Below, piece after piece: positions 9,780-39,060 of a stretch of DNA of 43,570 bases (positions are counted from its first letter, which is position 1; each line of letters starts with the position of its first letter). A program made the translations under genes and the position numbers. Origin of the DNA: Psammoneis japonica (Eukaryota); NCBI GenBank assembly GCA_008632985.1, contig QPGO01000162.1, forward strand, positions 124,001-167,570, given 5' to 3'. The notes below the pieces were generated by a model. The model was not told the origin of the DNA and did no database searches. It was given only the letters and a program-made list of their open reading frames with translations.

Positions 9780-10880
9780 CATTGACATTGATGGCTGCAT
9801 TGAACATTTTCTTGGAGCTGTGGTTGAAGTGTGCGCGACAACACCTGTTGGTGCACAAAAGCAACCTCAGCACTGAAGAAATGTTTGGTCTTTTGGGGCA
9901 CAGGAACAGTCATTGGGGCACTCTGTACTCTGTGGACACAAACTGCTGTCTTCCTTGCTGGCAGTTCATGAGGTACCTCACTGAGATTTGTCAATGCCAG
10001 CACCCCCAGCCACCCTCTCTCACTTGAGAGCCAAAACTCATTCTTTTTTTTTTGTTCTGGAGGGAGGAACTCATCATTTGTCTCTTCCATGACAATGATG
10101 ACTTGACAAAGAATGTTGTCAAAGCACATTGGAGTGAACAAGAGTGCACTCTGTCGAAGCATGCAAAGCGAAACAAATGATCAGCGTCAAAAGCTGCTGA
10201 GCTCTCTGTCATCATCACTGGTGATCACAAAGTGCAAGCAAGCCCAGTGACCCACACACCCTGCACTCCTTGTCCCTGCAGGACTCTTGCTCTTCAATTC
10301 AAAAACAACTGCAGCTTTGAAATGTACGTGCGCTCCAGAGGAGTGCAACGAGGTGGTACAAACATGATGTGTGCACACGGAGGTCAATGAAAAAATGCCC
10401 TCCACACATTTGGTTGTCCTCACACACACTCACCACTCACCTTTTTTGAGACAAGATGGTCATCAATGGCAAACTCTGTGGTTGCATGGAATTTGAGTTG
10501 AACTCTGTGTGGACAAATGACTGGATTGGCAGAAAATTGCCAAAAAGGGCAACAAGATGGTGAGCCAGCAGAAGGCATTGCTGCCAGTTGTTGGTCAGTG
10601 CTGTGAAATGTTGCTTGTCACACTGAGACAGTGCAGTGCCATTGGCACAAGAATTGGCCACTCAAAATGGGCTTGTGAGACCCAGCAGCATGCCATTGGA
10701 GAGTTGGGGGCATCAGCACCAGAGGGTGCACAGAAACACATGCAGGACTGAGAGCAAGTCTGCAGTTGTTGGGTGATGACGCTTCCAAATAAAGTGGCGT
10801 GGGTGATGCAAGAGTGGCTCAAGTCTTGAAGGTTCCATTTCTTCCTCATTTGCCCCCATTGTGTCGAGTGGAGCTGTTCC
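9780..10880. mobile_element. Isolated TpA/CpG-depleted island, probable decayed TE remnant
   Basis: Only about 5 TpA in ~1.1 kb between normal genes. No coherent ORF and no termini recognised. Confidence 0.5.
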
Positions 10881-11242
10881 TGCAAGTAACAACCCTCAAA
10901 CCTTGAGATTTTCCCCGCAATTTCGACTGGAGATGGTGTTGGAAGATGCATGATTCGCTGCAATGACCGCGTGGCGGCCAAAGGGAGGAGGGAGCAGAGT
11001 GAAACTGGCGGAATCTGGTTCAGACGCAGACTTATGGGTGTTGAACGCACGAGATGGCGAGGCGAATCTCGAGGTGACTGGCAAAGCCGGCTAATTACGC
11101 ATTAATGAAAATGTCATTGGTGATCCCGTTTTCAGAGGGAGATTTGATTGCCGGTCGATTGCTAATGACACGTGGTTGACATCAAAATCTATTGTGGCTT
11201 ACGATTTATTCCATTTCCTCGGCATTATCGTCAACATTCTTT

Positions 11243-18800: not shown

Positions 18801-20507
18801 AGCACCCCAACGAAGACGCCATCAGTCGTTCCTTCCACATCGCCGAGTGCAAATCCATCCCTGTTTCCGTCCAACTTCCCATCGATGTTCCCTTCATTGT
18901 CACCGTCGCATCCTACAGTTTATGTCGATCCGTGCGATGACTCTACCAACGGAACGTTTTTTGTTGACGATCAACGTGGGCACCGCGGATGCATCTGGCT
19001 TAACAAGAAGCCTGAGTGGCAAGCCTCCCTCTGCAACCCAGGCCACGATGCATATGATGTTTGTGCTGAAACTTGCGGCAAGTGTAGCGACTCTTGTCAC
19101 GACACCGATGGTGAGGAGTTTTGGGTAAACAACGTTCAACGGTATAAGAATTGTTCGTGGTTGGCGGTTTCGCCCGGTTTTCAGATCGAACTCTGTCACA
19201 GCGAACACGAGGCGTACGAACTTTGTCGCGAGACATGCAACAACTGTCTTCCACCGGTGCCTACTTCTGAGCCTTCTGACACGCCCTCGTTCCCTCCTTC
19301 CGCTTCACCTTCGAAGTTTCCTAGTCAGTCTCCATCATTCTCACCAACGCAAGCTCCTTTCTACGTCGACCCTTGTGACGATTCGGTGAATGGTACATTC
19401 TTCGTGGATGAACAAAGGGGGCATCGGGGATGTGTATGGCTGAACAAAAAACCTGAATGGCAATCAAGTCTTTGTATTCCTGGTCATGACGCTTATGATG
19501 TTTGTGCTGAAACTTGCGGCAAGTGTACAGATTCTTGTCATGATATAGTTGATCAGGAGTTTTGGGTAAACAATGTGCAACGTTATCAGAACTGTTCATG
19601 GTTGGCGGTTTCGCCCGGTTTTCAGCTCGAGCTGTGTCACGATGAGCACGACGCGTACGAAATTTGCCGCGAGACTTGTAACAATTGCCTTCCACCCGAG
19701 TTTTTATTTCCCTCTTTGCCTCCATCCGGATTGCCGACTGGGGCGCCTTCAGTTGCTCCTGAATATGTTGATCCATGTGATGACTCATTTGAAGAAACAT
19801 TTTTCGTCGACGAAGACCGGGGCGAGCGGGGTTGCATTTGGCTCACCAAGAAACCGGAGTGGCAAGCTGTTCTTTGTGTTCCTGAGCATGATGCTTATAG
19901 TGTTTGCGCCGAGACCTGTGGGAAGTGTACCGACTCATGCCATGATACCGAAGACCAGGATTTCTGGGTGAATAACGTACAGCGGTACAAGAATTGTTCG
20001 TGGTTGGCTGTGAGTCCAGGCTGGCTGGTTGAACTTTGCTATGAGGGCCACGAGGCGTACGAGCTTTGCCGAGAGACTTGCGACAACTGCCTTGCACCAC
20101 ATTTGACCCCATCGACACCTCCAACTGTTGCTCCCACAGTCACACCTACGACGATTCCGGATGATCAGGAACAGCTTATTGACAGCTGCGATGATTCCTA
20201 CGATCAAACGTTTTTTGTTGATGCCGAACGCGGCTACCGCGACTGCACATGGCTTGCAAAGAAGCCGCTGTGGCAACCGCTGATGTGTGATCCTTCCCAC
20301 GCTGCCTACCACATTTGTGAGGAAACGTGCGGCAAATGTACCGACAATTGTGACGACGAGGTAGATGTGGATTTCTATGTCAACGATGTACGTCTTTACA
20401 AGACATGTGCATGGCTTGCTGTCCGTCCTGCTTGGCGTGCTCAACTTTGTCACGAAGGACACGAAGCCTATGAATTGTGCCGAGATACTTGCAACAGTTG
20501 TGATTAA
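15843..20507 (+). CDS. Large secreted protein: M11 (gametolysin)-like peptidase domain with degenerate Zn motif, Pro/Ser stalk and C-terminal Cys-rich repeats; several apparent frameshifts
   Basis: Signal peptide MRLPCLGLAAGLL...; QMDSCSFGKL, DHVMYCLPPG, WTAYG, QMRQIGHNIGL, GDNTGYMG, MCYNGHKNWLLGWY; PSxx repeats; CxxTCxxC-ending modules. 5' exon structure uncertain. Confidence 0.75.
17350..18915 (+). repeat. Coding PSxx tetrapeptide repeats with a 144-bp (48-aa) higher-order unit
   Basis: ccatcggc.a.tcc recurs at 17777 and 17921. Unit approximates PSAIPSTLPSASPSNVPSAVPSDVPSGSPSGVPTTAPSAAPSESPSKN. Confidence 0.9.
18920..20504 (+). repeat. Four coding Cys-rich repeat units (8 ShK-like modules)
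   Basis: DPCDDS..TFFVD..GCxWL.KKPEWQ..CAETCGKC followed by FWVNNVQRY.NCSWLAV..CRETCNNC, repeated four times. Confidence 0.85.
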
Positions 20508-20542
20508 GGACATATTGAATATGTTTTAACTGTAAGCCACAA

Positions 20543-20899
20543 TGTGGGATTCTACCTAGGATACAGGTCCTATCTGTAGAATGTACTGCTGACAATCAGT
20601 ACAAGGTACTAAAAGCCAGTAAAATAGCAATGAGTTGTCTTACTAACTCGTGCTTAGTTGAAATTATGAGCTAAAACTAATCTAAAAGTGAATCTCTCGT
20701 TTTGTGATCCGAAAGATCTTGGATAATGCCACGTCAGAAAATAGACATTCTTCGAATGTCACTCACGTAGAATATGTACTAAGAGTCACGGCGTAAGTTC
20801 GTCACTTGAATTGTCCTTTCCGATGTCCAACTCAGCCGTATGGAAATGCTAAGAAGATTGGACGTCCTGAGATGTCCACAGTCATACTAAATTGTCACA
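20543..20899 (-). repeat. Copia 1 3' LTR (TpA-retaining copy)
   Basis: TG...CA ends; lies 35 bp beyond the host stop codon ending at 20507; aligns ungapped with 26685-27041. Confidence 0.97.
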
Positions 20900-20942
20900 C
20901 TCCTTTTGAAAGTGTCGGGTGAAGCTGTGACTTGATCTAAAA

Positions 20943-23900
20943 TCACCACTTGAGCAGCTTCTTTCGAAGGCGAGCAAATGTGTTTTGAGGCACTGGCTTG
21001 GTCTCCATGTCTGCAATTTGTTCAGTGGTGTCAATGGGTGGAATGGAAATGATTCCCTTCCTAACATGTTCCTTGAAATGATGCAGCGCTGGGTTGAAAT
21101 GCTTGGTTCTTGGTCTCATCTTGGGCAGTCTTGCAATTTCCAACGTGCCTGAATTGTCCTCGAATGCCTTGCAATGAACCAAAGGAGTCTTGGATGGCAC
21201 CTTGTGTCCATGCTCTTGAAATTCCTTGATCAAATTGATGACAGGAATGGCGCTTCGGAGGCTCTCGGATGAAGCGACACACTCGGCTTCTGTCGCACTT
21301 AGCGCGATTTGTGTCTGAAGCTTGGATGTCCAAACGACAGGGCAGTCTGCGCAGGCAACAACGTGCCCTGTCCTGGACTTTGAAGTGCTAACGTCATGAG
21401 GGGCAGTCATTTTGTTCCAATTGCCTGCGAAGTTGGCATCGGCACGAACTTCCAATGACTTGTCTTCCGTTGGGTCCAGAATGATGCCTTCATGTCTGGT
21501 TGCTCACAAGCACTTGCAGAGCCATGGCACTGCCTCACCGTGTGATCATTTGGGGTCACTTGAAAATCGCGTGACTTGATGCACAGTGTGCGCGATGTCG
21601 GGTCGAGTGCTCTTCTCCAGAAAATTCAATTTGCCGATGATGCTGCGACAGTCGAAGGATCCGTCAAAAGATTCTTGGTTCTCATGTCGATGCAGCATCT
21701 TTGAAGACGCTGCTGGAGTCTGCTTGTCTGGCACACGACGAGGTGAGTTCACCATTTTGAGCATTTGCTTGATCATTTGTGGTTGCATCAGCTTCATTCT
21801 GCCATCAGGCAGTGTCTCGATGTTGACACCGAGGCAGTCGTCAATGTTTCCTTGATCATCGATGTCGAAGATCGCGTTGCGGATGTCTTCAATTGCCTTG
21901 TCAACAGCATCCTTGTCTGGTGATGCAAGTGTGCCATCGTCAACGCAGTGCACCAAAACAACATTTCCTCGACAACAAAGGCATTCATCGACTTTTGATT
22001 GTTTGAATCCGATTTTCAACAATCCTTCTCGCAAGTGCTCACCCCACACTCTCCCTGCTTGTTTCTGTCCACACAGGTTCTTGAGTGATTTCAACACATG
22101 GGTTCTGCCATTGCCGCACTTGGTTTCGACGCCTTGTGGCAGCTCCATGCACATGTCAAATTCGATGTCGGCGTGAGGACAGGCAAGAACGAAGTCGACT
22201 TGGCGAGTGTGCCATCAATTAAAAACGGACAGCATGAGTGGGAACCGCACAGTGTTCCAATTGACAACTGCTGCATGAGTCTGAAAATGATTGACTGCAT
22301 GCTCTTGTTTTCCACCGTGCACATTGAGCCTTGACTTGCACTCACACACTTTTCTTGTCTTGATGTCTCTTTTTCTCTTCACAGACCACACCGCTGGGAG
22401 CATGTTGACTCCCTCTGGAACTTCTTCGACAGGAATCAGTTTCCAGTTTTTTTGTTCAATGTGATCATTGACTTCCTTGATGCAAGCCTTGATGAACTCG
22501 TCTCGGTCTGGTTCATTCATGGCTTGATCAAAATGCATGGCATCTGGGTCCGTCCTGGCTAAGAATGCGAAAGGTGAGTCCATGTTGTCTTGCATCTTGT
22601 AGTCGCCCTTGTGCATTGCATCGCAGCACTCGCAATGGGTCGACAGATATGATGCGATGCCGGCAGTTCGTTGTTGTTGACTTTCTGCCTTTCATTGCGT
22701 TGGTTTGCGTGCTCTGCCAGCCCTGCCAACACTTGGTTGTTCTGGCACCGTCTCTTGAGAGTCTTCAGGTGTCGTGTCTTCTGCTGATTTGGGCGTCTCG
22801 TCTTCAGCAATGGGGAAATGCTCGTCTTCGAGTTGTTGCGGAACATTGGGTTCCGGTGTCGAAGTGTTCTGTGCTGGCGCAGCAGAGCGAGGCTCCCTTG
22901 CTTCCCTTTGTGGCTTGAAGACATTGAATCTTGATGCTCTTTGCTTCTTGAGTCCTGATGCGGTTTGCCATTGCGAGAACGCAGGTGCATTTCCTGCTGA
23001 AGGGCGCACCGTCTCGAAGAAGTCATCAAATTGAACATGAAATTGCAGAGAGGCAAGTCCAGTCTCGAGGTTGAGCACTAAATTGACTGATCCAGCGTGT
23101 CTCGGAGATGGTCCCAAGTTGATTCCTAACCTTGCTCTTGATTGCCACTTGGGTGCTCTCTGTCCACTCTGCAGTCGGTTGTCAAGCGCATGGACGGGGC
23201 ATCCGAAAGTGTGGTGTTGTTTGAGATTTGGAGCAACCTTGACGGAGGCGAATCGTTCGATTGGAGAGCTGCCATCTTCGTGGTTGGGCATGTTGTTCTT
23301 GAGCTCATTTGAATTGCGCAGCGCACTTGGCCAGAGATTGATCTCAACAGCCGTTGGCCATCTTGCTTTCGCATGCAGCAGCTGTTTGCAAGTCTGTTCT
23401 TGCAGGTCTCGGATTCGCTTTTCAGCAACACCATTTTGGAAGTGGGCGTTGACGCCGCAGCATGATGTGGTTTGTCCTTGTTTCTCAACGTCTTGTGTGA
23501 AAGCGTTGTCAGCAAATCGTCCGTTGTCGGCATGGCAGTGTTTGATTTGGACATGATGTCGTCTCGCAAAGGCTTCGAAAGCGTGCTTGGCTTTCAGGGT
23601 TTCCTCGGAGGCAAGTGATCATTGCAGGAACACATGTCCAAGTTTGGAGTGGTGATCGACAAATGCTGTTGCTGCTCTGCATTGCTGTTTTGCAGGTCTC
23701 CCTTTGAGTTGAGGGACAAAGCCTGGGGTTGAGCTTTCAAGCTGATCTGCTGATGTGACCTCTCCTGGCTTTGCAGCGACATGTGTGTTTGACTTGCATC
23801 TGGATTTGGCACGCCAAGGGCGTTTGGTCATGGCGCCACAGAGGCAGCTGGCACATTTGGGTTCCTTGACCTTCAGGAGGCATCGCGGAAGGACACCCAA

Positions 23901-25136
23901 CACAGCCAGGAGCTCAATCATTTTGAATGATTGGTGTCGGAGGCGACAGTGCCAACGCAACAATTCACCTTGGTCGTTGGTGGCCACCAGGGCATCATCG
24001 TCAGGGATGACGTTGATGGGATCTTTGAGTTGAGAGCGGACGTCTGGGGTCGCTAGATCCTTGAGGTTCTCATCAGGTGAGTCGGATCTGTGTGCAGCAT
24101 CTGTCAGTTTGAACAACAGTGGCACGTCCTCATCAACGTTGTTGCATGCGCCTTGGGTCTTGTCAGGACCTGTCTCGTCAGGACTTGTGAAGGCGTCTTT
24201 GTGATTCGCAGCATCCGCGGACTCAGGGTCACTGTCGTCGTCTGGAGGCATCACGTGCGTTTGACAGGCTACGTGCTCGACAGTCTCGACATTGTTGTCA
24301 GCATTGACTGCGGCGGCGAATGCCCAATGATCGGCAGCACCGGGTGCGGAACGGAAGCGTGCAACGTTGGAGTTGTTGGTCCAAGGGACCAGCCTCGTGT
24401 GCTTCCTTTGATCCCACATGAGTGGGAGGCCGTCGTCTCGGTTCCAGGAAGTCGTTCCGTGTGGTTCAGGACAATGATCCTGAGCTTGCTGGCTCCATTG
24501 CTGAGGGCAGAGGAGGCAAATGGGCAAGTTGGGAACATGCAGTGCGTCGTGTATGGTGATCGTATGCACCTGTCCGTCGTCGTCTTCGATGCACCACTTG
24601 AGTGTGCCCTCTCCTTCTGCGTCTAACCATCCGCCTGCTCCCTTGATCTGCTTGTTTGCAGGACGTAGGTCACCAACAAAGTGTGATCCATCGTTCGACA
24701 TTGTGCAGGTTGCGTGGTTGTTGATGCCGACAATGAAGGAGTCGTAGTCGCAGGACACTGGCTCCGTTCTTGGCTCTCTTTTGAATGGTGTCGTGGTGGT
24801 CGAGGTGTTGGCGTAGACCGTTTCGCGAAAGGTGATCTCGCATTGAGCTGTCTTGCACGCAATTCGAGTGGGATGGCCCTTCTTCTTGTGAGTGATGTAT
24901 CGCGGTGAGTGTCGACTCTTGTTTCGTCGTGGTTTGCGTGTGCCAGTCATGCTGTCAGCTGGGATTTGCGAAATGATCCACTCACCCAACGTCATTGCTG
25001 ACTTAGACACGCGTTTCCACTTCTTCTCTGGCAGGTTGAGCGTCGTAAACACTGTGAGCACCAACAGTGGAGCCATGGCATCTACGAAGCTTGTGGTGAC
25101 CAGGGCAATTGCAAACGCGACAAGCACCGCCTTCAT
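20943..25136 (-). pseudogene. Copia 1 pol (PR-IN-RT-RNase H), broken by stops
   Basis: ORF pieces 23619-25136, 22692-23291, 22215-22616, 21546-22154 and 20943-21455 carry Copia motifs with Tyr replaced by Cys/His. Confidence 0.93.
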
Positions 25137-25172
25137 GCAGAATGCCCATGTCCGGAGCGCCTTCCGGACTGG

Positions 25173-26600
25173 TCATTCCTCGGACTCGTGATCCTCGATG
25201 ATTGAGGCCAGAGCGTTGGCATGGGAAACTTTCTTGTTGGAGTCTTTCGTTCCGCTTTCGGATTCTTGAGCTCTGCAAAGTTGACAACCTTTGTCTCCCG
25301 GATCATCAGGTGAGTGAGCTGCCCAAGCAGAGTGGTGCTTGCACCAACAACATTCTCTTCCCTTCTGACTCTTGTGATGATGCTTGTGCCCATTGACAGT
25401 CTTCGTAGGATCACTGTCCTTTGGCGGAGTCTTCTTCCAGGCTTCATCCTGTTTCTTGGCGCGCTTTGGGTTCTTGCTCTTGTTCTTGGAGCTCTTGCTG
25501 CCACCTCCCTTGGACTTGCTGGGACCACTCTTGAGAGCCTTGGAGAGCTTGAGGTTGTGATCCTTGATGGTCTCGACTTCCGTGGTAAGTGCGACAATCC
25601 TTTCCTGCTCAGGAGAGAGTGCTCCCCACTTGTCTGCTCGATCGAGGTTCGTGCACTTGTTGAGTGCTAGCTGCATGACTCGTTCCGGAGTGCAGTCCTC
25701 ACCGTCGTCGCACTTCTGTTCTATGTCAGCCATGCACTTGACGAATGCTTGATCGCTGGCTGCTGCGCATCCTTTGAATGGATTGACCACAAGGTCATTG
25801 CAGCCTTCTCCCCCAGCTCTGAGTCCGTCATGGTTGAGTTTGACGTGCTTGTTGAACTCCTTGATGTTTGAGTTGCAGGTCGACATGCATGAGTCAAGGC
25901 TGGACAAGTTCTTGCGGAAGCAGTTCGCGGTTGAGCGAGCATCCACAATGGCCTTCTGAGTGAGTAGTTTGAAGAACAGTGCACCGACTTGTGCTCCATT
26001 GATCTTGCATTGCTCACTTTCGGCGATGATCTTGTCTCTAGCTTCCACAGTTAGGGTCTGAGAGATCGCCTCAGCCATTTGGACTTGGTTCTGGGCTTGC
26101 CTTGACTGAGCAGCCATGCAGGCAGTAGCGTGGTCGCGCACGTTTTGTGCGGCAAGTCTGCCATGCTCGGTGATCAAGTCTCGAGCGATTCCATTGCTGT
26201 CAGGGATCGACATGATGTTTCCCGTTCCTGACTTCCATCCTGACTCTGCTGCTCATTCGTTGAGAACTTCACAGAATTTGTTGAGACCTTCAGAGTCTCT
26301 GTTGAACTCGTGAGGCAGTGGAGCCGCAGCAGCATTCCAGAGCTTGAGACCTTGCGAGGTGCCGCAGTCCATCCAGTTGTTTGGATGGTGCTGACCAGAG
26401 GTCAATGCGAACATGGGTCCTGCAGCAGGTGCTGCAGGAGGAACCGGAGGCACTGGAGGTGCTGGAGGTGCACCTCCTCCACCACCACCTCCTGGAGGGA
26501 CTGGTGGAACCGGTGGAACTGGCGGTGCTGGCACAGGTGCACCTGCCGGAGCGGCAGCAGGAGCTGCAGCAGGAGCTCAAGTCGCAGCAGACGAGGTGCG
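25173..26600 (-). pseudogene. Copia 1 gag with Pro/Gly-rich N-terminus
   Basis: ORFs 26253-26534 and 25173-26213; Lys-rich region, WCKHH..W..H motif and acidic tail; located between the 5' LTR and pol. Confidence 0.85.
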
Positions 26601-26684
26601 GGTGGTTGCCATTGTTGGATGGTTTGGGTCTCGATCAATGGCTGGCTTGAAATCGAAGTTGCGAAGCAGGTCGCAGAGGAAGCG

Positions 26685-27041
26685 CGTGGGATTCTACCTG
26701 GGATGCAGGTCCCATCTGTAGAGTGCACTGCTGACAATCAGCACAAGGTGCTAAAAGCCAGCAAAATGGCAATGAGTTGTCTTGCTGACTCGTGCTCAGT
26801 TGAAATTGTGGGCCAAAACCAATCTAAAAGTGAATCTCTCGTTTTGTGATCCGAAAGATCTTGGACAATGCCACATCAGAAAATGGACATTCTTCGAATG
26901 TCACTCACGTAGAATGTGGACTGAGAGTCACGGCGCAAGTTTGTCACTTGAATTGTCCTCTCCGATGTCCAACTCAGCTGCATGGAAATTCTAAGAAGAT
27001 TGGACGTCCTGAGATGTCCACAGTCATGCTAAATTGTCACA
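26685..27041 (-). repeat. Copia 1 5' LTR (TpA-mutated copy)
   Basis: About 30 substitutions versus the 3' LTR, 21 of them TA->TG/CA. Confidence 0.97.
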
Positions 27042-27118
27042 CACAACACTGTCATTTCTGAGTTCAAGGGACTTCATAGAACTCTCTAGTTGCAGTTTTG
27101 ATGTCATTGGAGTTGCTG

Positions 27119-27480
27119 GAACCAAAGGGGTGAAGTGGCGTTGTTGGTCAAGGCATGGCTTGAGGTGCTTGCGCTTCTTCTCCTTTTCGTGGGCTTCTGG
27201 GACTTTTTCTGGATCTTTCAAGCAATGCAATTTTGCATCCGTGTCTGTGACTCGGACGTCGAAGATGGCATCAGTCGACCTTTGCCACCAACCTTGCACC
27301 AAAATGTCACCTCGGTCACCGTCTTTAGACTTGTGAAGATTTGCAGAGACGTTGGCTTGCTCATTCTTTCCAGTGTCATCCGTTGAGCTCCTTGAGTCGC
27401 GGCCAGGGCCAACTGAAGGTTCGTCACGCACTGAAGAGGGCTTGGTGGATTTGCTGAAGAGATCAGCTGGCTCGTCTCTG
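27119..27480 (-). mobile_element. CRE-like non-LTR retrotransposon, 3' part (restriction-like endonuclease), truncated
   Basis: EIRDE...RGDILVQGWW..DAIFDVRVTD..EKEKKRKH..C...RHFTPLV. Continues RHDE|IRDE from 35223 once Copia 2 is removed. Confidence 0.85.
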
Positions 27481-27547
27481 ATTTCTGTCAGCCTGTCTAT
27501 CTGCACATCGTGTGATGGACAGACTGGACACGGATGATGGCCAGACC

Positions 27548-28101
27548 GACGTGTTCCAGCCGCACGTGAACCAAATCGTGCACAAAAACGACATTTGCGC
27601 GATTTTTGCGCGGTCCCTAACTTACGATCGAACTTTCACAACCAAAAGTATAGATTTATACAAATATAAATGTTTTGCAACACTAACAAGACTCGTGTGA
27701 GTGTTGCAATATCATTGTTATTGTGCTATCTATGTTTTTCATTGCGTTAAAAGATTCGTAACACAACGGATGATTTTCGGCGAAAATGTTGCCGTTATTT
27801 GGATGTTACCTAAATATATCTTTCTACGATGCTAATTGGTAGGTTTTCTACCTACGAAAAAATCTCAGTATAAATCTACTGACGTACAATCAGTATTGAG
27901 TCTACTGAGGAAGTTTATGATATATATCCCATGAGGATTTGAATACCCCTCAAAAAACTATTTAAATGTTCATACTCTGGAAGCCTATAAAAGTCAATCC
28001 GTCTAAGTATTTTTATGAAAATGCTATATACACTAAAATATACATAAATTATATTCAAAATCCGATTGTCGTTTTGTGCGTCACCTGGGACTGAACACAC
28101 C
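27548..28101. mobile_element. 554-bp AT-rich MITE-like insertion in the Copia 2 5' LTR
   Basis: Absent from the 3' LTR. Flanked by a GACC duplication (27544-27547, 28102-28105). Imperfect inverted ends gacgtgttc / gaacacacc and subterminal gcacaaaaacgaca / tgtcgttttgtgc. Confidence 0.88.
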
Positions 28102-28415
28102 GACCATTTAGATGGACGAGCAGATCTCTCTGAGATCTGCTTCTCACTCTTTTCTTGCTGGCACTCATGTTGTCACAGTCCTGGTACTTTGGGGAGTCTT
28201 TCACATCATTGTCGCCTCTCACCTTCAGTGTTCTGTCAGGTTGTGGCCACACGCTGTGCCACAAACCTCTGCGCCAAGCTTTCTGTTGCGACTCATCTGT
28301 TTTGTGAGCCGATCGAGCAAGCCTCATTGTCTGATCTGACAATTTTTTTCTCGCTTTCCCGGCATTTTTCACGACTGTAGAAACATGCCAGATTTCTGCG
28401 TGTGCATGACCAAAA

Positions 28416-30460
28416 ATGCCCTCACCAAGTGAAACCATGGCGTCTCCAGACCTTTCAAAGGCCGATCCGTCATCCATTGCAGAGATCCATTGTGAACTCC
28501 AAGAACATGCAACGATGCCTCATTTCCACACAACTTTGAACAAGACACATGCGGACTCCACATTTGATCTGGACTCGTCCTTTGACGATCCAGAGCGTGC
28601 TCAACCGAAGAAAGATTTTGTTGACACATTTCAAGATCATCTCGTCAACACGGCGTTCCCACCTTGCACGGTTCATCCTGTGGACACACAGCCTGTCAAG
28701 ACGATTGTGGACGACGCTGTGTTCCGCGTTGTTGACTCTGCCAGGCCTCGTGCGATCCGCATGATGCCCGCATCTCTCTTGTCGATCATCAAGACCAATC
28801 TCCGCAACCATGATCAAATCACATGTGTCATCATCTCTGCACACCACATTGACGTTGACCCAAACATGAAATGGAACCATGAGGATTGGAAAGAGTTCTC
28901 TCTCACACCCCACCCCCAGAACCCACAGCCCACACCTTCATCTACGACTGGTTCAGGACCCACCACAGTTGGCATGAATGACTTGATCACTGCCCTCAAT
29001 GAGTTTGCGTCGAGCCACGCTCCGCCTTCTCCAGCTTCTGCCAAACCGCCTGGAAGTGCCGCATCTTCCGTTGCATCGAAGTGCCTCTTCAATCCGAGCA
29101 CACTGCCTGCAGATGTTCGTGAACGCCACGACCGCAAAGAAGCCGGTGAAGTGACCCTGAAGAGCTCTCTCGTTCATTGTGATCATGGATTCCGTCATCA
29201 CATTGATGCATCTGATCGTGTCATTCTCAATGATGGCACTCTCTTCATCATGAGCTCGACTCCTGATCAGAAAATGCTGTTCAGGGAACCTCCAATGTGT
29301 CATGATGACTCTCCCCCTGGGATGCGTGCATGGTGTCAAAATTTCCAACGTCATGCCTTTGATTCAGGATGCCACATGCATCCCTTGTGGTGTTTTGCTA
29401 AAGACCACGGTGGTGAGAAGGGTTTCGAGATCGGAAACGGCAAGGACGATGACTTGCCTCAACACATGCACATCCACTGCAAGGAAGCTCAAAGCTCTCT
29501 CCACAAGATCCCATCCAAGTTGGATGTGTTCCCCAAGAACAGCAAACATCATCAGATTGTTGCATCATGCTGTGGCAACGGGTGCAAGGCTCTCAAACAG
29601 ATTGTCTGCGAGAATCATCCTGCTTTTGACCACGACGCTGCTGGACTAGTTGACTCCCATCCTGTCCAGGGCAATTGATCATTGACAGATTGTCACATGA
29701 TCTTCAATGATTTCCTGCAGCCACGTGCCTGCATCTTTGACACAGACTCTACGTTGGATGATTCACGAGAGATGACTGTTTTCATCAAGAACACCAAGCA
29801 TTCCAAGTTCTTGTCTCGTGCCACCAGAGATGAACAAAGTCTCCAGCCATGCTCAAGAAGTGTGCACAGATTGTTGAGACTCTCTCTGATTTCCCCCACC
29901 AACCGGATGGCCCATCCCTCACCACTCGTGCCACACCATCCAATCCCCACCGTGAATGGACTCGAACACCTGAGGATGCACGACGCACGGCTGTTGATGT
30001 CAATGCTCTCAAGGTCCCTGAAATCCCTCCTTTTGAACCAGTCAATGACACTCCTCCTGATGACACTGTCACAGAATCTCCACCTCCAGATGCCTTTGAT
30101 GCTTTTTGTGATGAATTGCATGAACTTGAGATCCCTTCTGCGGACAAAGATCAACTTCTCCGACATGCACACTCGGCTTTAGTTTACAAACTGAAAGTCA
30201 CTCCGAATGAAGCCTCCAAGAAACCATGTCTCATCTGCTCCGGCGAACATTCATTCGATGGCTGTCCAGTCTTGCAGAACAACCCATGCATCAAAGGATT
30301 TCACATCCAATTTTGTCAATTTTTGAAGAGGGAAGCAGCCATGCGTGCTTCTAAGTTCCAAGGACCCCAAGGTCTGCTCCCACCTCATCATGAAAACCCT
30401 GCAATTCCTCCTGCATCTGGTGCTCCGCCATCGGATTTTCAATTGGGCCGTCGCAGCTAG
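28416..30460 (+). pseudogene. Copia 2 gag
   Basis: ORFs 28416-29678 and 29849-30460; CLICSGEHSFDGC zinc knuckle; ends SDFQLGRRS*. Confidence 0.85.
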
Positions 30461-30482
30461 TTTCAGATCTCCGACGCTGCCC
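30433..30482 (+). promoter_or_regulatory. Putative -1 ribosomal frameshift signal at the gag-pol junction
   Basis: G GAT TTT heptamer in the gag frame, 5-nt spacer, stem GGGCCGTCG / CGACG(CT)GCCC. The -1 frame is open into the pol ORF at 30502. Confidence 0.7.
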
Positions 30483-30501
30483 ATTTTCTCCTCACCGAGA
30501 C

Positions 30502-33500
30502 ATGACCAATGTCAGCGGGATGACAATGAAAGAGGGGCTGACCGTCTCGTCATCTGCCGCTGCAATGCCTCTTTCTTCGCAGATTGACATGGATGCCACC
30601 CCTTCCACTGCCACGAAGGCATCATTTGATGCCAGCAAGTTGCCAGATGATGACCCTGCTCCTCTGGAGGACACCATCGATGCTGCTCCTGCTCCGGATT
30701 CTTTGGAACAGGGGAGGGAAGACCCAGAAACACCGGATTTTGAGGAGCACATTGACCTCACCTACAATGACATGGCTGTTGAGGATGGCTTTGCTGCTGT
30801 CAACTCTGTTTGTGTTGCTCCAATTGATCCATGCCAAGCCACTCACTCTCCTGAACCGGAATTGCTGCGCTCCACTTGTTCTGTCAACGGGGTCAACTTT
30901 GCTCCGAATGAACCTTGTGCTCAGTTGGATGCTGGCGCTGACACAGCATGTGCAGGCGACTGTGAACTTCTTCATCGATGTCAAGAATTTACTCCATCCC
31001 ATCCCTGCCCTCTTGCCGTCAATCTGGCACTTGGCCATCATGCTGTCCCAGTTGGATTCGGATGCCTCCGCATTCCCGCAGAGAACTCCAACGGATGTGT
31101 TGAGGTCTGCACCTGTTGCCACCCGCAGATCCGATCTACGTCAGTCGATGAGCACCCACTGCTTTGCCAGAATGGCACTCATCACGCCGATTGCAATGTC
31201 GACTGTGTGCTGAAGTTCCATGATCTTGGCACCTGCAAGTTTGTTGCACGACGCTGATTGCGCAAGAATCAGGACATCATCACACATGGGAAGCTGATCA
31301 ATGGCAAATGCTGTGCTCACCCTCTCATCCTCCCTGACTCTCACATTGAATTGGATGCATCTGTCGAGTGCCTCAAGAACAGTGACCCTTCTTTTGCCAA
31401 TGAGTGTGAAGGGGTCTCTGCGCACATGATTGAAACATGCAGCACGCACCAACATGAAGCTCTTTGTAACGAACGGAATTTGATTCCCCGAGTCTGTCAA
31501 GATGTTCCTTTTGAGGATTGTGCCGAGAAGAACATTCCTGTCCAGTCTCTCAAGGCCGACACGGAACGCGTTTTATGGCATCAGAGACTTGGTCATCCGA
31601 GTGACCGCTGCCTGTGTCATGCCCATGAACACGTGGACGGTGTCCCCAAGTTTGCCCACGGCACTTCTCCTCTCAACACTTGCCCTGCATGTGTGCGCGC
31701 TAAGCAGACAAAGGAACCTGCAGGTCCAAACACTGCTCTCACTGCCACCCAACCCTGCCAAGGCCTCACGGTTGATTTTTTGTTCTCTGGATTGCGATCC
31801 AAGAACTCGGAGTGCACCAAGGACTGCATTGGGTTGAATGGCAAGACTTGTTGGATCACTGTTTGTGATCATAAAACAAAGCGTCTCCATGGTGCGACTC
31901 GTGTTTCCAAGGCAACTCCTTTGAATTGGCTTTGACACTTTCTGGAAGAGCACTCGCCAAAATGTCCAGATGAGCATGTGTTCATGGATCAAGGAGGTGA
32001 ATTGCATCAGAATCCGGAGGTCCGACAACTTTTCGAGGATGACTTTCACTGCGCAATTCATCCCACGGGAAAAGATGCTTTGAATCAGAGTGGCCCAGTG
32101 GAACACAGTCATTTGTCTGTCGCCAATGCCATTCGGGCGATGCCAGTTGGTGCTGACTCACCCATGAAATTCTGGCCCTGTGCTTTCCATCATTTCATTC
32201 ACATCAACAATGCTGTGCCATCCTGTGGACAAGCTGCTGCTCTGATTGCTCTCGCTGCTGGTCGCAAGGATGATTTCAAGAACTTTCACACATTTGGTTG
32301 CCGTGTTTGGGTGCATGCTTCGAATCACCGCCCAGCGAAGTTTTGGTCTATCTCTTGCAAGGGCATTTTCTTGGGCTGCCTTCCGGACACTGCCAAGAAC
32401 ATCCTGTGGCATGACACCGAGTCATTGCGTGTCAAACTTGCCAAGCATGTCCATTGTGATGAGGGGATGAATGATCTCCCCCGAGACTCCATTCCCCCGA
32501 ATGTGGTTCACTTGGAGCGTGCTCAAGATGGCAAGGCTCCACCTGCCGACACTGACAAATCTACGATGGATGAGTTTCACTTCCATGGCAATCCTTTTGC
32601 AAAGACCATCACGCGCACAATGAAGGGCCCATTTGCTGATCCTGCATTTGGAACGTCATTGGCTGCAGATGATCTCTATCGGCAAGTGTTTGTCTTGGAC
32701 ATTGAACATGGCTCTCCTGCTGCGCGTCTTTTCTCTTCTTTGAAAGCAACCCGTGAGAAGATCAAGGGTGAGTGTGTTGCATCAATTGATGATCAGCCTG
32801 TCTTTGCGGCGGAGGAGGCCATCAAGCATCTTCAACAAGTGTGTGATTCTGGCAAGACTCATTTTGAAATCGAATTCGTGCCAGGACGTCACCTGGACTC
32901 CCAGGCTCTACAACGTGCTTTGATGGAACACAATGTCTGTGCACCGACCCCTGATCCTGATGATGAACATGTCCTGGAGACAACCAATGCTGACATGCGC
33001 GCCATTGCCACCATGTGCCATCCTGATGTTGATTTTTCCAAGATGGACAATGATGACGTTCCTCCGCTGTTTTCCATCGACCATGACAATGGTGTGGTTT
33101 CTATCTGTGCTGTTTCATCTCATGCTGTTGCTCCAGAGGAACAGGCATTGGGCACTTTCACTTGCCATTGCCTCAAGAAGCTGGGTGCGTGGCCCGAATG
33201 GCACGCTGGTGAACTCAAGCAACTTGATCAATTTCATGAGTTAGGAATGTTTGGTGCCCTGATTAAACGTCCAAAGGATGCCATTGTACTTCGTCCACAT
33301 TGACAATGTGACCTCAAGCATGATGGCACACGACGATCTCGACAATGCTGCGATGGATCTCCCTGTGCTGCCTCGATTCTCCATTTGACTTCACTTGACC
33401 TGCTCCTCTTGTGTGGAACAACCCATCCAACGAATGTTCTTTGCCCTTGCTGCAACAATGAGCTGCCCTGTCTTTGGTGGTGATGCCTGTGATGCCTGTG

Positions 33501-34844
33501 CACATTCTCTGATGCATGTGCGACTTGGTGCATGGCTTGGTTTGGCATTGAATTGGACAGGAGCATGGTGCTTCCAATGCAACATGCACTTCAAGGACAC
33601 CCGGAAGCTGGTGTTCTATGAGAGACGCATGTCAACGGCATCTTGTCTGATGTGAATCTGCTTTTTCGCAATGCTGCTCATGACAAATGCATCCACTCCG
33701 CTGCTTTTGAAGGACATGAGATGCTGCTCCTTTGTCAGGTTGATGATTTCTCCCTTGTGTGTCCTGAAGAGTCCCTTGCAATCCAAATCTACGACAAAAT
33801 TGGCAAAGCTCTTCAACTGGAGTTGCAACTTCTCCGCCCTTCAAGCATCTTGGTGTGATTGCAGAGTTCAATGGTGTGGACATTCATCAATGTGATGACT
33901 CCATTGGTGTTGCTGTTCACAGTCATGTTGATCGGGTTTGCACCTTGCATGGATGGTTGACACTGACAGATGAGGAACTCAACGATGACTGCAAGGCTGT
34001 GCCAATCCCGGTCGACTCTGTTCAAGAACTGCACACTGCCATTGGTCCAGCTGAAGGAACCCCGGAGCATGCGGAGTTGCAACAGGCTGTTGGATTTGGT
34101 TGTTGCACTTCACTTGGTGAATTGTTGCATGCGCATGTTGTCTGCCGATTGGATGTTGGACATGCCATCACCACCCACTCCAAGTTCTCTGCTTGCCCTG
34201 TGATGGTTCACCATGCTGCGCTCAAGGGTGTCTGCAAGTGCCTTCGACGTGCCAAGCAAAGGGAACTGAACCACAAGAAGCCCAATTGAGACTCGCGATT
34301 GCCTGCCTGCCCTTTTGAACGTCTCACTCCGGACCCGACCCTGCCGTCGTTCCCTTTCCCCGAGCATGATCATCAACTCATTGCCTTTTTGGATGCCGCA
34401 TGTGGTGATGATCTTCATAACCATCGCTCTACGACCGGACATGCATGCATGTTAGCCGGAGCTGCTGTGTCTTTCCAGTGCAAGACTCAATCGGTGACAG
34501 CTGCGAGTTCAACGGAAGCGGAATTCTGCACTGCTGGCACTGCTGCCAAGCATGTCCTTTGCCTTCGTCACATCCCACATGACCCGGGCTTCTCTCAGAC
34601 AAAGCCAACCCCGTCACACATTGACAACGAATCGGCGATCAAGATCATCAAAAATTCGATCCCGACCAAGCGCTCCCGTCACATTGAAATCCAGTTTTTT
34701 GCGATCCAAGAATGGAAGGAAGTGGGCAAGATTGTCACAAGACACATCCCTGGCATTGTCAACCCCAGCGATGACCTCACCAAGGCCCTTGGCTGGGCAC
34801 TGCATGCTCACCACGCTCGACACATGATGGGACACTGCTGTTGA
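30502..34844 (+). pseudogene. Copia 2 pol (PR-IN-RT-RNase H), broken
   Basis: ORF pieces 30502-31257, 31258-31935, 31978-33303, 33855-34289 and 34299-34844 carry Copia motifs. Confidence 0.92.
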
Positions 34845-35022
34845 TGTTTTTTTCCGCGGTGGCTCCCCTGCTGCGCATTGCCCTCCTTGTTTGATTGCAC
34901 ATTGAGCAGGGACACTCATTGTGTCGTGTGTCTGGTCTCTCTGTTTTTTTCTCACATCATCCCTGTTCTTTGGTTTGATCTGCACTGTTCTCTATGATGA
35001 GTCATCACAGATCAGGGGAGGG

Positions 35023-35217
35023 TGTCAGCCTGTCCATCTGCATGTCGCATGATGGACAGACTGGATGCAGATGATGGCCAGACCATTTGGACAGACGAGC
35101 AGATCTCTCTGAGATCTGCTTCTCACTCCTTTCTTGCTGGTGCTCGTGTTGTCACAGTCCTGGCACTTTGGGGAGTCTTTCATGTCATTGTCGCCTCTCA
35201 CCTTCGGCATTCTGTCA
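35023..35217 (+). repeat. Copia 2 3' LTR
   Basis: TG...CA ends, preceded by the PPT and followed by the TSD. Confidence 0.95.
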
Positions 35218-35222
35218 ATTTC

Positions 35223-37345
35223 ATCATGTCGCAAGATGACTACATTCCAGTGCATGTTGTGTGGAAAATTTGCACCCGCATCCATCACACTCCTGCACGA
35301 GGTGGGTTGGGAGGTGTTTCGGCATGGTGCACATGAAGGGCATCATGGAACTCATTGCTCGACAGCTCTGTTCCATTCACAACAGAAGGACAGACAGACA
35401 GCCAAGCACCAGTTTGTGTGCTTCTTTGTGTGGCTCTTGCTTTCTCGTTTGGCAGAGCATTGAGAACATTGCAGAGTTTTTGTTTGTTTGTGACATTCTT
35501 GCGCTCCAGAACAGTGGACTTCACCTCCTTGGAGGTTTCTCGGTGAACAGCCCATTGGAACTGCACGCGGCCGCGCAGGGAGTCAATTGCGTGAGCACTC
35601 ACCAGGGTGCTTGATTTGCAGTTGTCTGGGGCTGACTCTGTGGGACAAGGGATTGAGAGTCCAGCAAATTTGACGGGCAGGGCCGACAGGGCAATCCCAG
35701 GATCTTCTTGATCTGGCATGTCATTGAAGAGTGCTGGGAGGAAGAGATTGGCGATCGCTTCCTCAATCTCCGTGAATGAGTCGCCACAGCTCTTTGCCAC
35801 ATGCTGGACATGTTGCCATTCATGTTGCAGTGATTTTTGCATCCCTGCATGTGCTGTCTGGGGACACTTTGCTGCGATGTCTGCCAGACCTTTGACGATG
35901 CTTGTCCGCTTCTCGGACTTCTCTTCTGTCCATTTCCTGAATTCTTCCTCCTCACCGACAAAACCGCCAAGGTGTCTGTGCTTCCAGTGGCAATGGAGAA
36001 GCCAAGATCTCCAAAGCAATGCTTTGCAGCTTCCAAGTTGCAACTTGTAACTGCTGAAATGTTCTTCTTGTTGTTGTCGGGGCAGTGTCCGACTTGTGGA
36101 CCTGGCTCTCGCAAGCACAGGAAGAATGCTCTGATTCTTTCAAACCTTCCAGCGGCAGCCGAGTCATCAGTGCACCAGGGTTTAAACACATCTGGAAATT
36201 CTTTGTTTGGTTGCTTGACCAGTGGGAGAAGTCCCAGTCTGTGCACAACCATTGTGAGCGGGTCGCCCTGCGTGACACCTTCCTTGCTCTGAAGAGGAAG
36301 AATGCTGTGCCAAAGTGTCCTTGGATGACTGGGATGCTCCGATGCTTGCAGCAGTTAAATGTGAATCGGGCCCCAGAGGGTCAGAGGAATCCAATGCTGC
36401 AGAGCATCAGAATTCTGTTCTCCTTGTTGAAGCCATTGAAGGTGTTGATGAAGAGGAATCCGAGCTCGTCTTCGAATTTGTTTTGTTCCCAAAGTGGATT
36501 CATTGCATGAACCCCTCCTTCGACACCTGCTTCAAAACCAGCACAGAGTTGGTCTGTTCCACAGGCATCTTTGACTTCGGAACCAGCACAAATCATGATG
36601 GCTTTGGCTGTGATCCATTGCCAGATCTCGCCCATGCCGACCGGGTGCACGCCCGGGTTTTTGTCTGGTGTGAGTGGATGCTTTGCCATGAGCGCGCGGC
36701 AGGCGGCCCACGGAGGCAGTCCGTTCGCCACCCAGTTTGTGAGTCTCCCAAGTGCCTCTCTCAGGAGTCCACTGGCTTCTCCACCGGCACTGTGGCAGTA
36801 GAGCAGCCAGTTGGAGGCTGCATTGGCATCTGTTGCGCCGAGTCCACCACTTCCTGACAGACGTCTTGCTGCTTTCTCAACAGCGCCATTAGAGACTGGC
36901 ATGTCTTGGAAGTCTGGCAGTTCACCAAATTCGTGAAAGTGGGCTTTTTCTGGGATTCATGCGTCTGGATGCTTCTTTAAGAGGATGTCTTGGACTGGGT
37001 CCTCAGTCTTCTCGTCGATGTTGTCTGGGGCCAGAACTCCCCCCTTTTCACTGTTGGCTGTGTGGCGCACCGCCGCACGCAAGTTCCCTCGCAGCACCAT
37101 GTCATTGAAGGTTTTGGCACATTGATCAGATGTTGTTGATCCTTGATTGGTTTTAAGGTTGCTCTCAAGGAGCCGTTCAGTTGACTGAACAAGCATTTTA
37201 TGCTCACCTGCACCCCAGTCGTTCATGTGTCTGACGAGAAGCGAACGAATGTTCTTGGCACCTTTTGCCTCTCCGTCTCTTTGTAAAATCACTGTCTGAT
37301 CTCCAGAGGAGTTGACACTGTTTGCTCTTTGCTGAATGTGTGTGA
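35223..37345 (-). mobile_element. CRE-like non-LTR retrotransposon, RT part, degenerate and 5'-truncated
   Basis: DKNPGVHPVGMGE, QLCAGFEAGVEGGVHAM, FNGFN, GVTQGDPL (~36256-36279), WCTDD (from the W-Y-x-DD motif), LPVKFAGL, GAWL, RHDE. Confidence 0.88.
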
Positions 37346-39060
37346 ATCCAACGCCATACCCAAGGTGGATCATTCGTTGCTCCCATCCCTTGGCGCCAGT
37401 TTATCATCCTGTGAATTGTACTGCGACGACGATCCTCCTTTGGTTGGTCGACGCAGGTCGCGGGGCATGTCTTTGGTGGAAATGGATCACATGACGATAT
37501 CTTCAGCGAGCAGCACGGCCGTTTCAAACTACTATTGTCGGTGCACGATACTTAACCAACACTTCGACGGCCGCCGCGGAGGAAGTTTGTAAATCTTTGG
37601 AGGAAAAGAATGGCGCAATAGATACTGACGAAACCATTGTTTCCTCCAATGGGGTTTTCGACAAGCATTTTCCTCTTAAAGCAGATTCTCAGGGCATGTC
37701 TTCAGACGCGGAAAAGGAGAAAATCGATCGAAACAGTAAGCGTGTCATTGAAATGTCCTTGGCGTTGCCAGACGACTACACTCTCGAATACAAGCCAGGC
37801 GATTCCCTAGGTTTGATTGTCCACAACACACCTGAGGCGGTCAGGTTCGTTCTTGAGATGTTGCGAAGAAACCACGGTGTCAAGGCAACGCAGAAGGTGT
37901 CGGTAGATTCTAACCACCCAATCACCGTCGCTGATGCGATTATCAATCACATCGATTTGTGTTCTCCGTTGAAGAACAAGCGCATTTTGCATTCGCTCTC
38001 TCAGTTTGCAACTGACGTCGCCCAGGAATGCGCCTTGAGACTTCTTGCTTCGAAAACTCCACACGGAGAGCAACTGTTTGACACGTATGTTGACGGCCAG
38101 CGCATGTCAGTATTTGATATACTTCAGGACTTTCCGTCGTGTCAACGGATACCACTGGAAGGACTCTTGGGTATTTTGCCAGGGATCCCTCCTCGCTACT
38201 ATTCGGTGAGCTCTAGCCCGCTCGACAGGCGCGAGCCGCTCAGTCTTACGGTTGCGTTTTCCGTTGTGGATTATCTGACTCCTACGTTGGTAAATAGTGT
38301 TGGCAAGGAAATCGGTGGTCGGCGACGTATCGGCGGAATTGCGACACGGTATCTCGAAGTCTTGTGCTCTCCCTTTTTGTCGGGTCACTCACTCGAGAAC
38401 GCTCCAAAGCTGAAGATCTTCCCGAAACCGACCGCTGAGTTCCGCATGCCTGCGACAATATCGACGCCGCTCATATTGATTGGACCTGGCACGGGCATTG
38501 CTCCTTTTATGGGATTCCTGTCACATCGTAAGGCAGAAATCAAATCTATGGAGTCAGCAGAACTTGCGAATACATTGGTGGAGGGCACATGGCGTGGCGA
38601 CTATGAGCTTGAACCCAATGAATTGCCCATCTCCAACAGCGATGCGAAAGGGTTGAACCTTGGGGTTGATTTCAGGAGGCACCAAAGTGTCGGACCAATT
38701 CATGTATTCTTCGGTTGTCGTCACAAAGAGCACGATTGGCTGTACAGACAAGAAATGGAGCAATTGCATGCAGAGGGCATCATTTCCAAATTACATACGG
38801 CCTTTTCTCGAGATAGTCCGCAACGAGTCTATGTACAGGATCTCATGAAGCAGTGCGGATCACAGTTGACGGATCTTGTTTTGAAAATGAATGCGTCTGT
38901 TTACGTGTGTGGAGATGGAAACGCCATGGCGCGTGATGTTCAGTTTGCGTTAGTTGATTTGATTGCACAGTGCATGAAGGGCGACGAGGAGGGTGCCAAG
39001 GAATATCTTGAAAGAATGAAGCTGCAGAACCGATTTGTAATGGATATTTGGACTAGCTAG
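37346..39060 (+). CDS. MTRR: Methionine synthase reductase-like diflavin reductase, FAD/NADPH domains only (5' end missing, possible pseudogene)
   Basis: YKPGDSLG, PRYYSVSSSP, GPGTGIAPFMGF, FFGCR, AFSR, YVQD, YVCGDG..MA.DV, DIWT. No flavodoxin domain upstream. MTRR versus other diflavin reductases is an inference. Confidence 0.7.

Follow-up and report, generated by a model that had tools for sequence, protein, structure and literature searches.

Flanking bases govern which TpA sites survive in the depleted retrotransposon blocks of a Psammoneis japonica contig

In a 43.6-kb stretch of the Psammoneis japonica genome (contig QPGO01000162.1, positions 124,001 to 167,570, 43,570 nucleotides; hereafter, the window), TA-normal DNA carrying ordinary genes alternates with blocks almost free of the dinucleotide TpA, and this loss is limited to blocks with Copia or Gypsy retrotransposon domains, the adjoining host genes being normal. 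Here, we report that the few TpA sites left in these blocks are strongly enriched for TCTA and its complement TAGA, that this enrichment is independent of ancestral k-mer frequencies, that the underlying change is directional and specific to TpA, and that the survival of a site fits a model in which each of its two flanks contributes a factor of its own. The ratio of observed to expected (o/e) TpA ranges from 0.4 to 1.0 in TA-normal DNA and from 0.02 to 0.19 in the depleted blocks, where TG and CA are each raised, to 1.3 to 2.2. The blocks (D1 to D4) and the elements on which the analysis relies, including two copies of a long terminal repeat (LTR) and a second Copia element (Copia 2), are as follows (Y, pyrimidine; R, purine).

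1-6200: depleted block D1; 29 TpA left, 10 of them TCTA/TAGA and 22 TYTA/TARA
9601-11000: small depleted block D2; 8 TpA left, 1 of them TAGA, without enrichment
20901-27500, minus strand: depleted block D3 with a Copia element (RVT_2, gag_pre-integrase); 41 TpA left, 17 TCTA/TAGA
20544-20900, minus strand: 3' LTR of the D3 Copia, unmutated, the ancestral reference; 29 TpA in the aligned core
26686-27042, minus strand: 5' LTR of the D3 Copia, mutated; 22 of 29 ancestral TpA lost; kept, 3 TCTA, 2 TAGA and 2 GCTA
28201-37400: depleted block D4; 41 TpA left, 16 TCTA/TAGA
28370-35020, plus strand: interior of Copia 2, dead (Pfam gag_pre-integrase, SH3_retrovirus); 30 TpA, 14 TCTA/TAGA
30904-34835, plus strand: pol of Copia 2 (tblastn with 36 intact Copia polyproteins)

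Context of the surviving TpA sites

An earlier note on this DNA had counted about 27 TpA in the Copia 2 interior, about 13 of them TCTA, and had proposed that TCTA/TAGA is enriched among the survivors. The TCTA count was exact (TA at 28943, 29750, 30352, 31137, 32349, 32562, 32677, 32909, 33102, 33617, 33790, 34430 and 34993; the example coordinates of the note refer to the first T of TCTA), while the total had to be raised to 30 and a single TAGA (28378) added. The proposed enrichment itself held up well: with a TCTA/TAGA share of 13.9% (111/797) in the TA-normal DNA of the window, finding 14 such sites among 30 has a binomial P of 1.6e-5, or of 4.6e-6 against an expectation of 1/8. Across all depleted blocks, TCTA/TAGA makes up 44 of 119 TpA sites (odds ratio of 3.6 relative to TA-normal DNA, P = 1e-8), and the wider class TYTA/TARA accounts for 75 of 119, compared to 210 of 797 in TA-normal DNA (P = 1e-14). 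Per block, the excess is seen in D1, D3 and D4; no such excess was found in D2, with its 8 TpA. Two smaller observations of the same note were also borne out. In the mutated LTR of the D3 Copia, five of the seven TpA kept are TCTA/TAGA (26695, 26719, 26825, 26910 and 26992), the other two being GCTA, and the open reading frame at 31978-33303 contains only one Tyr codon, CTC-TAT at 32677, alongside 14 Cys and 30 His codons. The TCTA/TAGA excess is thereby confirmed as real and well beyond chance.

The most direct test of context is offered by the D3 LTR pair, in which the unmutated copy provides the ancestral sequence. TCTA/TAGA sites were kept in four of five cases and other sites in 3 of 24 (Fisher P = 0.0067); for TYTA/TARA, the corresponding numbers were 6 of 9 and 1 of 20 (P = 0.0011). 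Flanking bases, then, govern the survival of TpA, and ancestral k-mer frequency is insufficient as a cause.

For the depleted blocks in general, retention was estimated relative to two ancestral baselines. One was the window's own TA-normal DNA; the other consisted of the coding parts of 19 loci, the least depleted (TA o/e of at least 0.70) among 71 related Copia loci on metagenome contigs. The retention index for each left flank xy is the share of xyTA in the sum of xyTA, xyCA and xyTG in the blocks, relative to the same share in the baseline. Against an overall value of 0.11, retention was 0.31 for TTTA, 0.30 for TCTA and 0.23 for CGTA; it was 0.04 to 0.05 for GGTA, GATA and AGTA, 0.01 for AATA and 0 for TATA. 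On the sense strand of Copia 2 pol, with the 19 relatives as the baseline, TCTA was kept in 9 of about 16 cases, and every other left context fell between 0 and 0.22. A thymine at position -2 raises survival both within NCTA (odds ratio of 3.1, P = 1.2e-5) and within NTTA (odds ratio of 1.9, P = 0.013). Sites with a TC flank on one side and a TT flank on the other are retained almost completely (index of about 1.0; 6 kept, about 6 expected), those with a TC flank and a purine at -1 on the other strand's side (TAGA paired with TAY) have an index of 0.26 to 0.32, and RTAY sites have one of 0.03.

Retention was therefore not uniform after correction for k-mer frequency, within the window and with these proxy baselines: a Poisson model with uniform retention over 136 hexamer classes was rejected (deviance of 268.4, 135 degrees of freedom, P = 7e-11), the outcome that the earlier note had anticipated. 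A model assigning one survival factor to each flank and multiplying the factors of both flanks does fit (deviance of 120.2, 120 degrees of freedom, P = 0.48) and improves on the uniform model by 148 on 15 degrees of freedom. The fitted factors form a graded series, with TT (1.14), TC (0.92), CG (0.50), GT (0.49), CT (0.43) and GC (0.33) at the high end, AC (0.29), TG (0.24), AT (0.23), CC (0.21) and CA (0.19) in the middle, and AG (0.16), GG (0.11), GA (0.10), AA (0.04) and TA (0) at the low end. TCTA/TAGA, the motif singled out by the earlier note, is thus indeed near-immune but not unique, as TTTA/TAAA is kept equally well (0.31 versus 0.30), followed by CGTA/TACG. In other words, survival is a graded two-flank code, of which TCTA/TAGA represents one of two near-immune flanks.

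Two more specific readings of the survivors were considered and abandoned. The commonest surviving hexamer is TCTACG/CGTAGA, with 10 copies observed where about 8.2 would have been present ancestrally. While this number is striking relative to uniform retention (P = 1.8e-8), the flank model already predicts 3.7, and the remaining excess (P = 0.005) is nonsignificant over 136 classes, so TCTACG was dropped as a specifically protected hexamer. We also ranked the resistant contexts against those of A34 tRNA anticodons. The latter rank high for retention (P = 0.038), the opposite of what a set of substrates would do, and the correspondence was not reproduced in the partly mutated family described below, in which TACG is the most edited context; this idea was dropped as well.

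Direction of the change and a partly mutated Copia family

To establish the direction of the change, 36 intact Copia polyproteins (at least 1200 residues each, from 43 found) were mapped onto the window by tblastn, and a Tyr codon was called conserved if Tyr was present in at least half of at least 20 aligned homologs. Among the 36 conserved Tyr codons of Copia 2, 17 are now TGY, 15 are CAY and 3 are other codons; the only one still reading TAY (33790) sits in TCTACG. TA-to-TG and TA-to-CA changes are, by this measure, about equally frequent. The same mapping on the D3 Copia was set aside, since the alignment of homologs was too weak to trust.

The D3 LTR pair gives the same picture without recourse to homologs. 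Comparison of 20544-20900 with 26686-27042 revealed 31 differences in 360 aligned columns, 25 of which are T-to-C or A-to-G changes in the mutated copy. No fewer than 22 of the 31 destroy a TpA, leaving 9 others over all 360 columns, so that divergence at TA (22/29) lies far above that elsewhere in the pair. The 22 lost sites became TG (11), CA (10) or GA (1), that is, 21 were lost by transition, and no TpA was gained. Since both LTRs had the same sequence when the element inserted, their differences at 22 TpA mean that the change was fixed in DNA after insertion. The border of the depleted block is sharp and coincides with the inner end of the 3' LTR, which has all 29 TpA intact while its twin has lost 22.

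In Copia 2, both LTRs have been hit (27498-27535 and 28096-28232 compared with 35030-35210), and at seven sites the two copies disagree, one having CA where its counterpart has TG. Such double differences are independent hits on opposite strands of one ancestral TA, and they provide a handy marker of ancestral TpA where an unmutated copy is missing. When 20400-37500 was compared with 4582 contigs of sequencing run X1 at a likeness of at least 80%, the differences were mostly transitions (A to G, 543; G to A, 549; C to T, 663; T to C, 621), and, among the 40 of 3042 differing places that were listed, CA/TG double differences were also present at 28687/8, 28973/4 and 33717/8.

A Copia family from microbial-mat and other metagenomes allowed the process to be observed before saturation. 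It comprises 45 loci that were aligned to L044, of which 36 were used after nine near-identical duplicates had been dropped. Its copies have lost between 8% and 71% of the consensus TpA, with an overall divergence of only 5 to 15%. The five most mutated copies (L062:2000-10000, L028:1-4000, L057, L050 and L059) have lost 56 to 71%; L062 and L028, which are the longest two contigs, show depletion inside the element, with its flanks spared. In these five copies, A changes to G at a rate of 0.286 in TA, compared to rates of 0.056, 0.059 and 0.032 in AA, CA and GA, respectively; twelve copies with little mutation give 0.036 for TA and 0.046 for AA. Changes from A to a pyrimidine at TA are rare in the hypermutated copies (36/1251, 0.029), compared to 0.020 in the little-mutated ones. 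The influence of context was counted over 168 consensus TpA sites with full flanks, with states other than TA, TG, CA and CG dropped. Editing of the adenine depends on the base 3' of it (C, 0.44; T, 0.36; A, 0.16; G, 0.18; Mann-Whitney P = 8e-13 at the level of sites), and no effect of the base 5' of the thymine was found in this family (0.26 to 0.33). A TpA mutator of this kind therefore reads its neighbors in a strand-specific manner and prefers TAY, in agreement with the YTAR bias of the survivors in the window. The TpA process is therefore present in at least one other environmental organism. A further pair of loci (L069 and L011), tried as a second unsaturated family, contained only 15 losses and was uninformative.

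Layout of the window

The remaining features of the depleted blocks are listed below.

1750-2388, minus strand: remnant of a Gypsy-type integrase (zinc domain) in D1 (Pfam)
27485-27548 and 28093-28238, plus strand: 5' LTR of Copia 2, split (alignment to its 3' LTR)
27549-28092: TA-rich insertion of about 545 bases inside the Copia 2 5' LTR
35017-35217, plus strand: 3' LTR of Copia 2 (alignment to its 5' LTR)

The Copia 2 polyprotein has its best named relative in the diatom Fistulifera solaris, which points to a probable diatom origin of the window. The insertion at 27549-28092 shows the highest contig depth of the stretch compared with run X1 (mean word depths of 18362 and 7476, versus 94 to 5706 in the other bins). 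Because its depth is by far the highest, we regard it as a very high-copy element without TA depletion, one that either arrived after the mutation or is not subject to it. Also in run X1, two contigs join 20537 to 27042 and skip 6504 bases, the whole of the D3 Copia including both LTRs. This joint may represent an empty-site allele, which would make the mutated D3 insertion polymorphic, but with 25 letters on its shorter side it offers a weak hint.

Genes in the TA-normal DNA encode, according to Pfam, an epimerase/dehydratase, an FAD/NAD oxidoreductase, WDR3/Utp12 and a 2OG oxygenase, among others. A tandemly repeated coding sequence at 17450-20500, with PT-repeat matches and internal repeats of 66 to 89% identity, is TA-normal and unrelated to the TpA finding. 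Look-alikes of the window stretch were not found in the other genomes examined.

Candidate mechanisms and known systems

We propose that a TpA-specific A:T-to-G:C mutator would strike transposon blocks as DNA, after their insertion, turning TA into TG or CA with an efficiency that would be set at each TA by at least two bases per side. TC or TT 5' of TA (GA or AA 3' of it on the other strand) would make a site nearly immune from that side, the flanks CG, GT and CT would be intermediate, and sites flanked by AA, TA, GA, GG or AG would be erased. Near saturation, a site would need at least one protective flank to persist, so that TCTA/TAGA, TTTA/TAAA and hexamers like TCTACG and TCTAAA would come to dominate the survivors. 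The flank code probably reflects a sequence preference intrinsic to the enzyme at work, for which an adenine deaminase acting on nucleic acids is the most likely candidate; both the reading by an enzyme and the chemistry are inferred from the pattern of change. The earlier note had offered two explanations, a mutator that reads flanking bases and a motif protected by a protein or modification. Dependence on the flanks, common to both, stands, and enzyme preference is the likeliest, although the data do not choose between the two.

Several observations weigh against intrinsic enzyme preference, some of them concerning which of the two adenines is edited. Models in which a single flank (5' or 3') acts on a single strand had to be rejected, with log-likelihoods of -58.5 and -59.4 over 70 events, compared to -48.5 for a coin flip. 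Because they do worse than 50:50, an effect at the level of the site, e.g., protection or duplex recognition, is possible. In addition, the lines of evidence on which adenine is spared by a flank disagree. According to k-mer flows, lost TCTA turned into TCTG (+109/+123) and not into TCCA (-3/-12), whereas five of the six losses seen directly at TCTA/TAGA sites are TCTA to TCCA. The k-mer flow evidence was not retained on this point: it implies an excess of TG on the sense strand of Copia 2, which the Tyr codons contradict. CpG, moreover, is also scarce in the depleted blocks (o/e of 0.05 to 0.37 in 2001-6000 and 0.4 to 0.75 in D4, versus about 0.8 to 1.1 in genes); TG and CA thus have two sources in these blocks, which likewise disturbs such flow estimates. 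The +1 base taken by itself is no more than suggestive: of 21 informative sites, 14 have the edited adenine ahead of a pyrimidine (P = 0.095). TAGA is unremarkable in the metagenome family (A edited in 18/60 cases in the most mutated copies and in 5/63 in copies of intermediate state), where editing is most frequent in TACG (33/61), even though a CG flank is protective in the window; the effects of T at -2 or A at +2 and of the CG flank are therefore peculiar either to the genome of the window or to saturation. For TCTAGA, high retention was predicted (4.2 copies), but a single copy was kept (P = 0.08). Finally, both baselines are proxies, the relatives having about 50% protein identity and a true ancestor being provided by one LTR pair only, and using TA density to draw the block borders brings some circularity into the retention levels, though not into context.

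Some of these points would be accommodated if the mutator were blind to context and a bound factor or a sequence-specific DNA modification (for example, adenine methylation or the 5-methylcytosine that TCTACG could carry beside its TA) shielded TpA sites flanked by TC or TT. Flank effects that act as site-level factors while leaving the edited strand unpredicted are in line with such a shield, and the most retained hexamer, TCTACG/CGTAGA (10 versus 3.7 predicted), does contain a CpG in DNA that is CpG depleted and so presumably methylated. We nevertheless consider protection unlikely: the factors are graded over all 16 flanks rather than pointing to a single motif, TCTA/TAGA was still lost in the six cases seen directly, and the strand-specific effect of the 3' neighbor in the metagenome family, with no matching 5' effect, has the appearance of an enzyme preference. 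The context dependence might instead lie in repair, in which case a context-blind lesion (hypoxanthine opposite T, if deamination is involved) would be removed by a repair enzyme to which the flank code belongs. The fit of the multiplicative flank model and the contrast between window and metagenome family would both allow for such repair, but it would have to be nearly complete at TC and TT flanks and almost lacking at AA and GA, and we rate it a distinctly improbable explanation. Unlikely, too, is a variant of the deaminase reading in which the mutator would treat the TpA step as one unit of the duplex, recognizing it in double-stranded DNA and deaminating one or the other of its two adenines, as a diatom defense against transposons. 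This idea is based on survival factorizing over the two flanks, with TG and CA arising in a near-random choice that neither flank predicts; to our knowledge, no natural double-stranded-DNA adenine deaminase has been described. If it were true, the mutator would be inherently blind to sites flanked by TC or TT, or such sites might carry a mark of "self." An RNA-guided step may also take part in the TpA change.

Causes other than context-dependent removal fare worse. Coding composition does explain some features of Copia 2. Its 13:1 ratio of TCTA to TAGA on the plus strand is largely compositional, given the 244:117 ratio on the sense strand of intact relatives, which it exceeds marginally (P of about 0.03, calculated by hand), and its excess of YTAY over RTAR (16 versus 4) follows coding composition (41% versus 11%). 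The enrichment as such, however, persists under two baselines, is shared by three blocks with different elements and orientations, and recurs in noncoding LTRs with a known ancestor. As for purifying selection, the elements are dead, 32 of the 36 conserved Tyr codons of Copia 2 now being Cys or His codons, and several of the kept TCTA sites are TCT-ACG (Ser-Thr), including the one at 34430, where all 33 of 33 homologs have Ser-Thr and a T-to-C change would be synonymous. Chance, ancestral composition and selection on coding sequence are thus largely refuted as the cause, and we give them next to no weight. It could further be argued that most survivors are new TA, created by ordinary C-to-T and G-to-A changes in DNA rich in CA and TG, their context being simply where they arise. 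There is ample material, with 4764 CA and 4765 TG versus 237 TA in the depleted blocks (4-mer counts on both strands), and, by our own arithmetic, ordinary transitions at 1 to 2% would yield tens of TA. The precursors TCCA and TCTG, on the other hand, make up 608 of 9529 (6.4%), whereas TCTA accounts for 46 of the 237 surviving half-sites (19%), the mutated D3 LTR gained no TA, and kept TCTACG sites match a conserved Ser-Thr or Tyr of homologs and must hence be ancestral. Since a build-up in TC and TT contexts would still require slower removal there, we regard new TA as a very improbable source of the pattern.

Among known processes, the closest match is found in the chlorarachniophyte Bigelowiella natans. 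A preprint describes TpA-to-TpG/CpA changes in integrated giant-virus and virophage DNA of this alga, almost exclusively A to G or T to C and all at TpA, and proposes an ADAT2-like adenine deaminase acting on DNA (10.64898/2026.01.13.699255). The process is live in mutation-accumulation lines, with line-specific de novo changes at about 1000 times the background rate, and 231 de novo TpA mutations are listed in Table S2 (10.64898/2026.01.13.699255). As in that alga, the change in the window takes place at TpA, is nearly always A to G or T to C, and is confined to foreign DNA; the two differ in that the organism there is not a diatom and the process was caught in action. The words "context," "flanking," "trinucleotide" and "diatom" do not occur in the main text of the preprint, which contains no flank code (10.64898/2026.01.13.699255). 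Our literature search found no other description of TpA-to-TpG/CpA hypermutation and, by title or abstract, no on-topic match for TpA in diatom retrotransposons.

A second process for comparison is repeat-induced point mutation (RIP), known from Neurospora and other fungi, which changes C to T at CpA in duplicated DNA and thereby enriches TpA. RIP and the process described here have in common that dense transitions directed at a dinucleotide kill repeated or foreign DNA in place, that neighboring genes are spared and that a dinucleotide index reveals the outcome. In the window, however, TpA is destroyed (22 lost and none gained in the D3 LTR pair) rather than made, and one D3 LTR escaped while its twin was hit, where a process triggered by duplication would be expected to hit both. 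RIP is also raised as a comparison in the discussion of the Bigelowiella preprint (10.64898/2026.01.13.699255).

The comparison with known deaminase and polymerase contexts, suggested by the earlier note, turned out to be partly informative: neither the UAG of ADAR nor the WA (W, A or T) of polymerase eta fits, and the UACG of TadA-like enzymes fits the metagenome family but not the window. ADAR has the hot-spot motif 5'-UAG (PMC10661471) and shares with the present process the A-to-G outcome and the 5' U or T. A 3' G is not preferred here, however, as the rate in the metagenome family is 0.13 to 0.30 for TAG versus 0.28 to 0.54 for TAC and TAT, and in the window TAG is one of the contexts that survive better; since the LTR differences arose after insertion, the RNA of the element was probably not the substrate either. 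TadA and ADAT2-ADAT3 act on 5'-ACG following U33 (PMC10661471). The T or U directly 5' of the target adenine agrees with this motif, as do the top rank of TACG and the order of TAC and TAT over TAA and TAG in the metagenome family, whereas in the window the CG flank is protective (the third highest factor) and TCTACG is the hexamer retained most. Early TadA-derived base editors prefer YAC. DNA polymerase eta, in somatic hypermutation, follows a WA motif, with A:T mutations at both TA and AA and a sizeable share of transversions. It resembles the present process in changing A to G after T and differs from it in that ApA is hardly affected in the metagenome family (0.056 in hypermutated versus 0.046 in little-mutated copies, with 0.286 versus 0.036 at TpA) and that transversions at TA amount to 0.029.

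The process itself, then, is not new; the contribution made here lies in the two-flank model with its correction for k-mer frequency, in the direct test on an LTR pair and in the metagenome family observed before saturation. The flank code is a biochemical fingerprint of a rare, barely described mutation process, one that argues against ADAR-like (UAG) and polymerase eta-like (WA) mechanisms and lends itself to a yes/no assay of any candidate deaminase, which should edit TATT or AATA and spare TCTAAA or TCTACG. A natural DNA adenine editor directed at TpA and with a defined context would be of interest to base-editing work. In the genomes of diatoms and other algae, an index of TA loss weighted by flank would flag DNA of this kind. 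Dating of these elements by LTR divergence is inflated by the TpA process, and Tyr-to-Cys or Tyr-to-His "substitutions" in annotated proteins become recognizable as its by-product.

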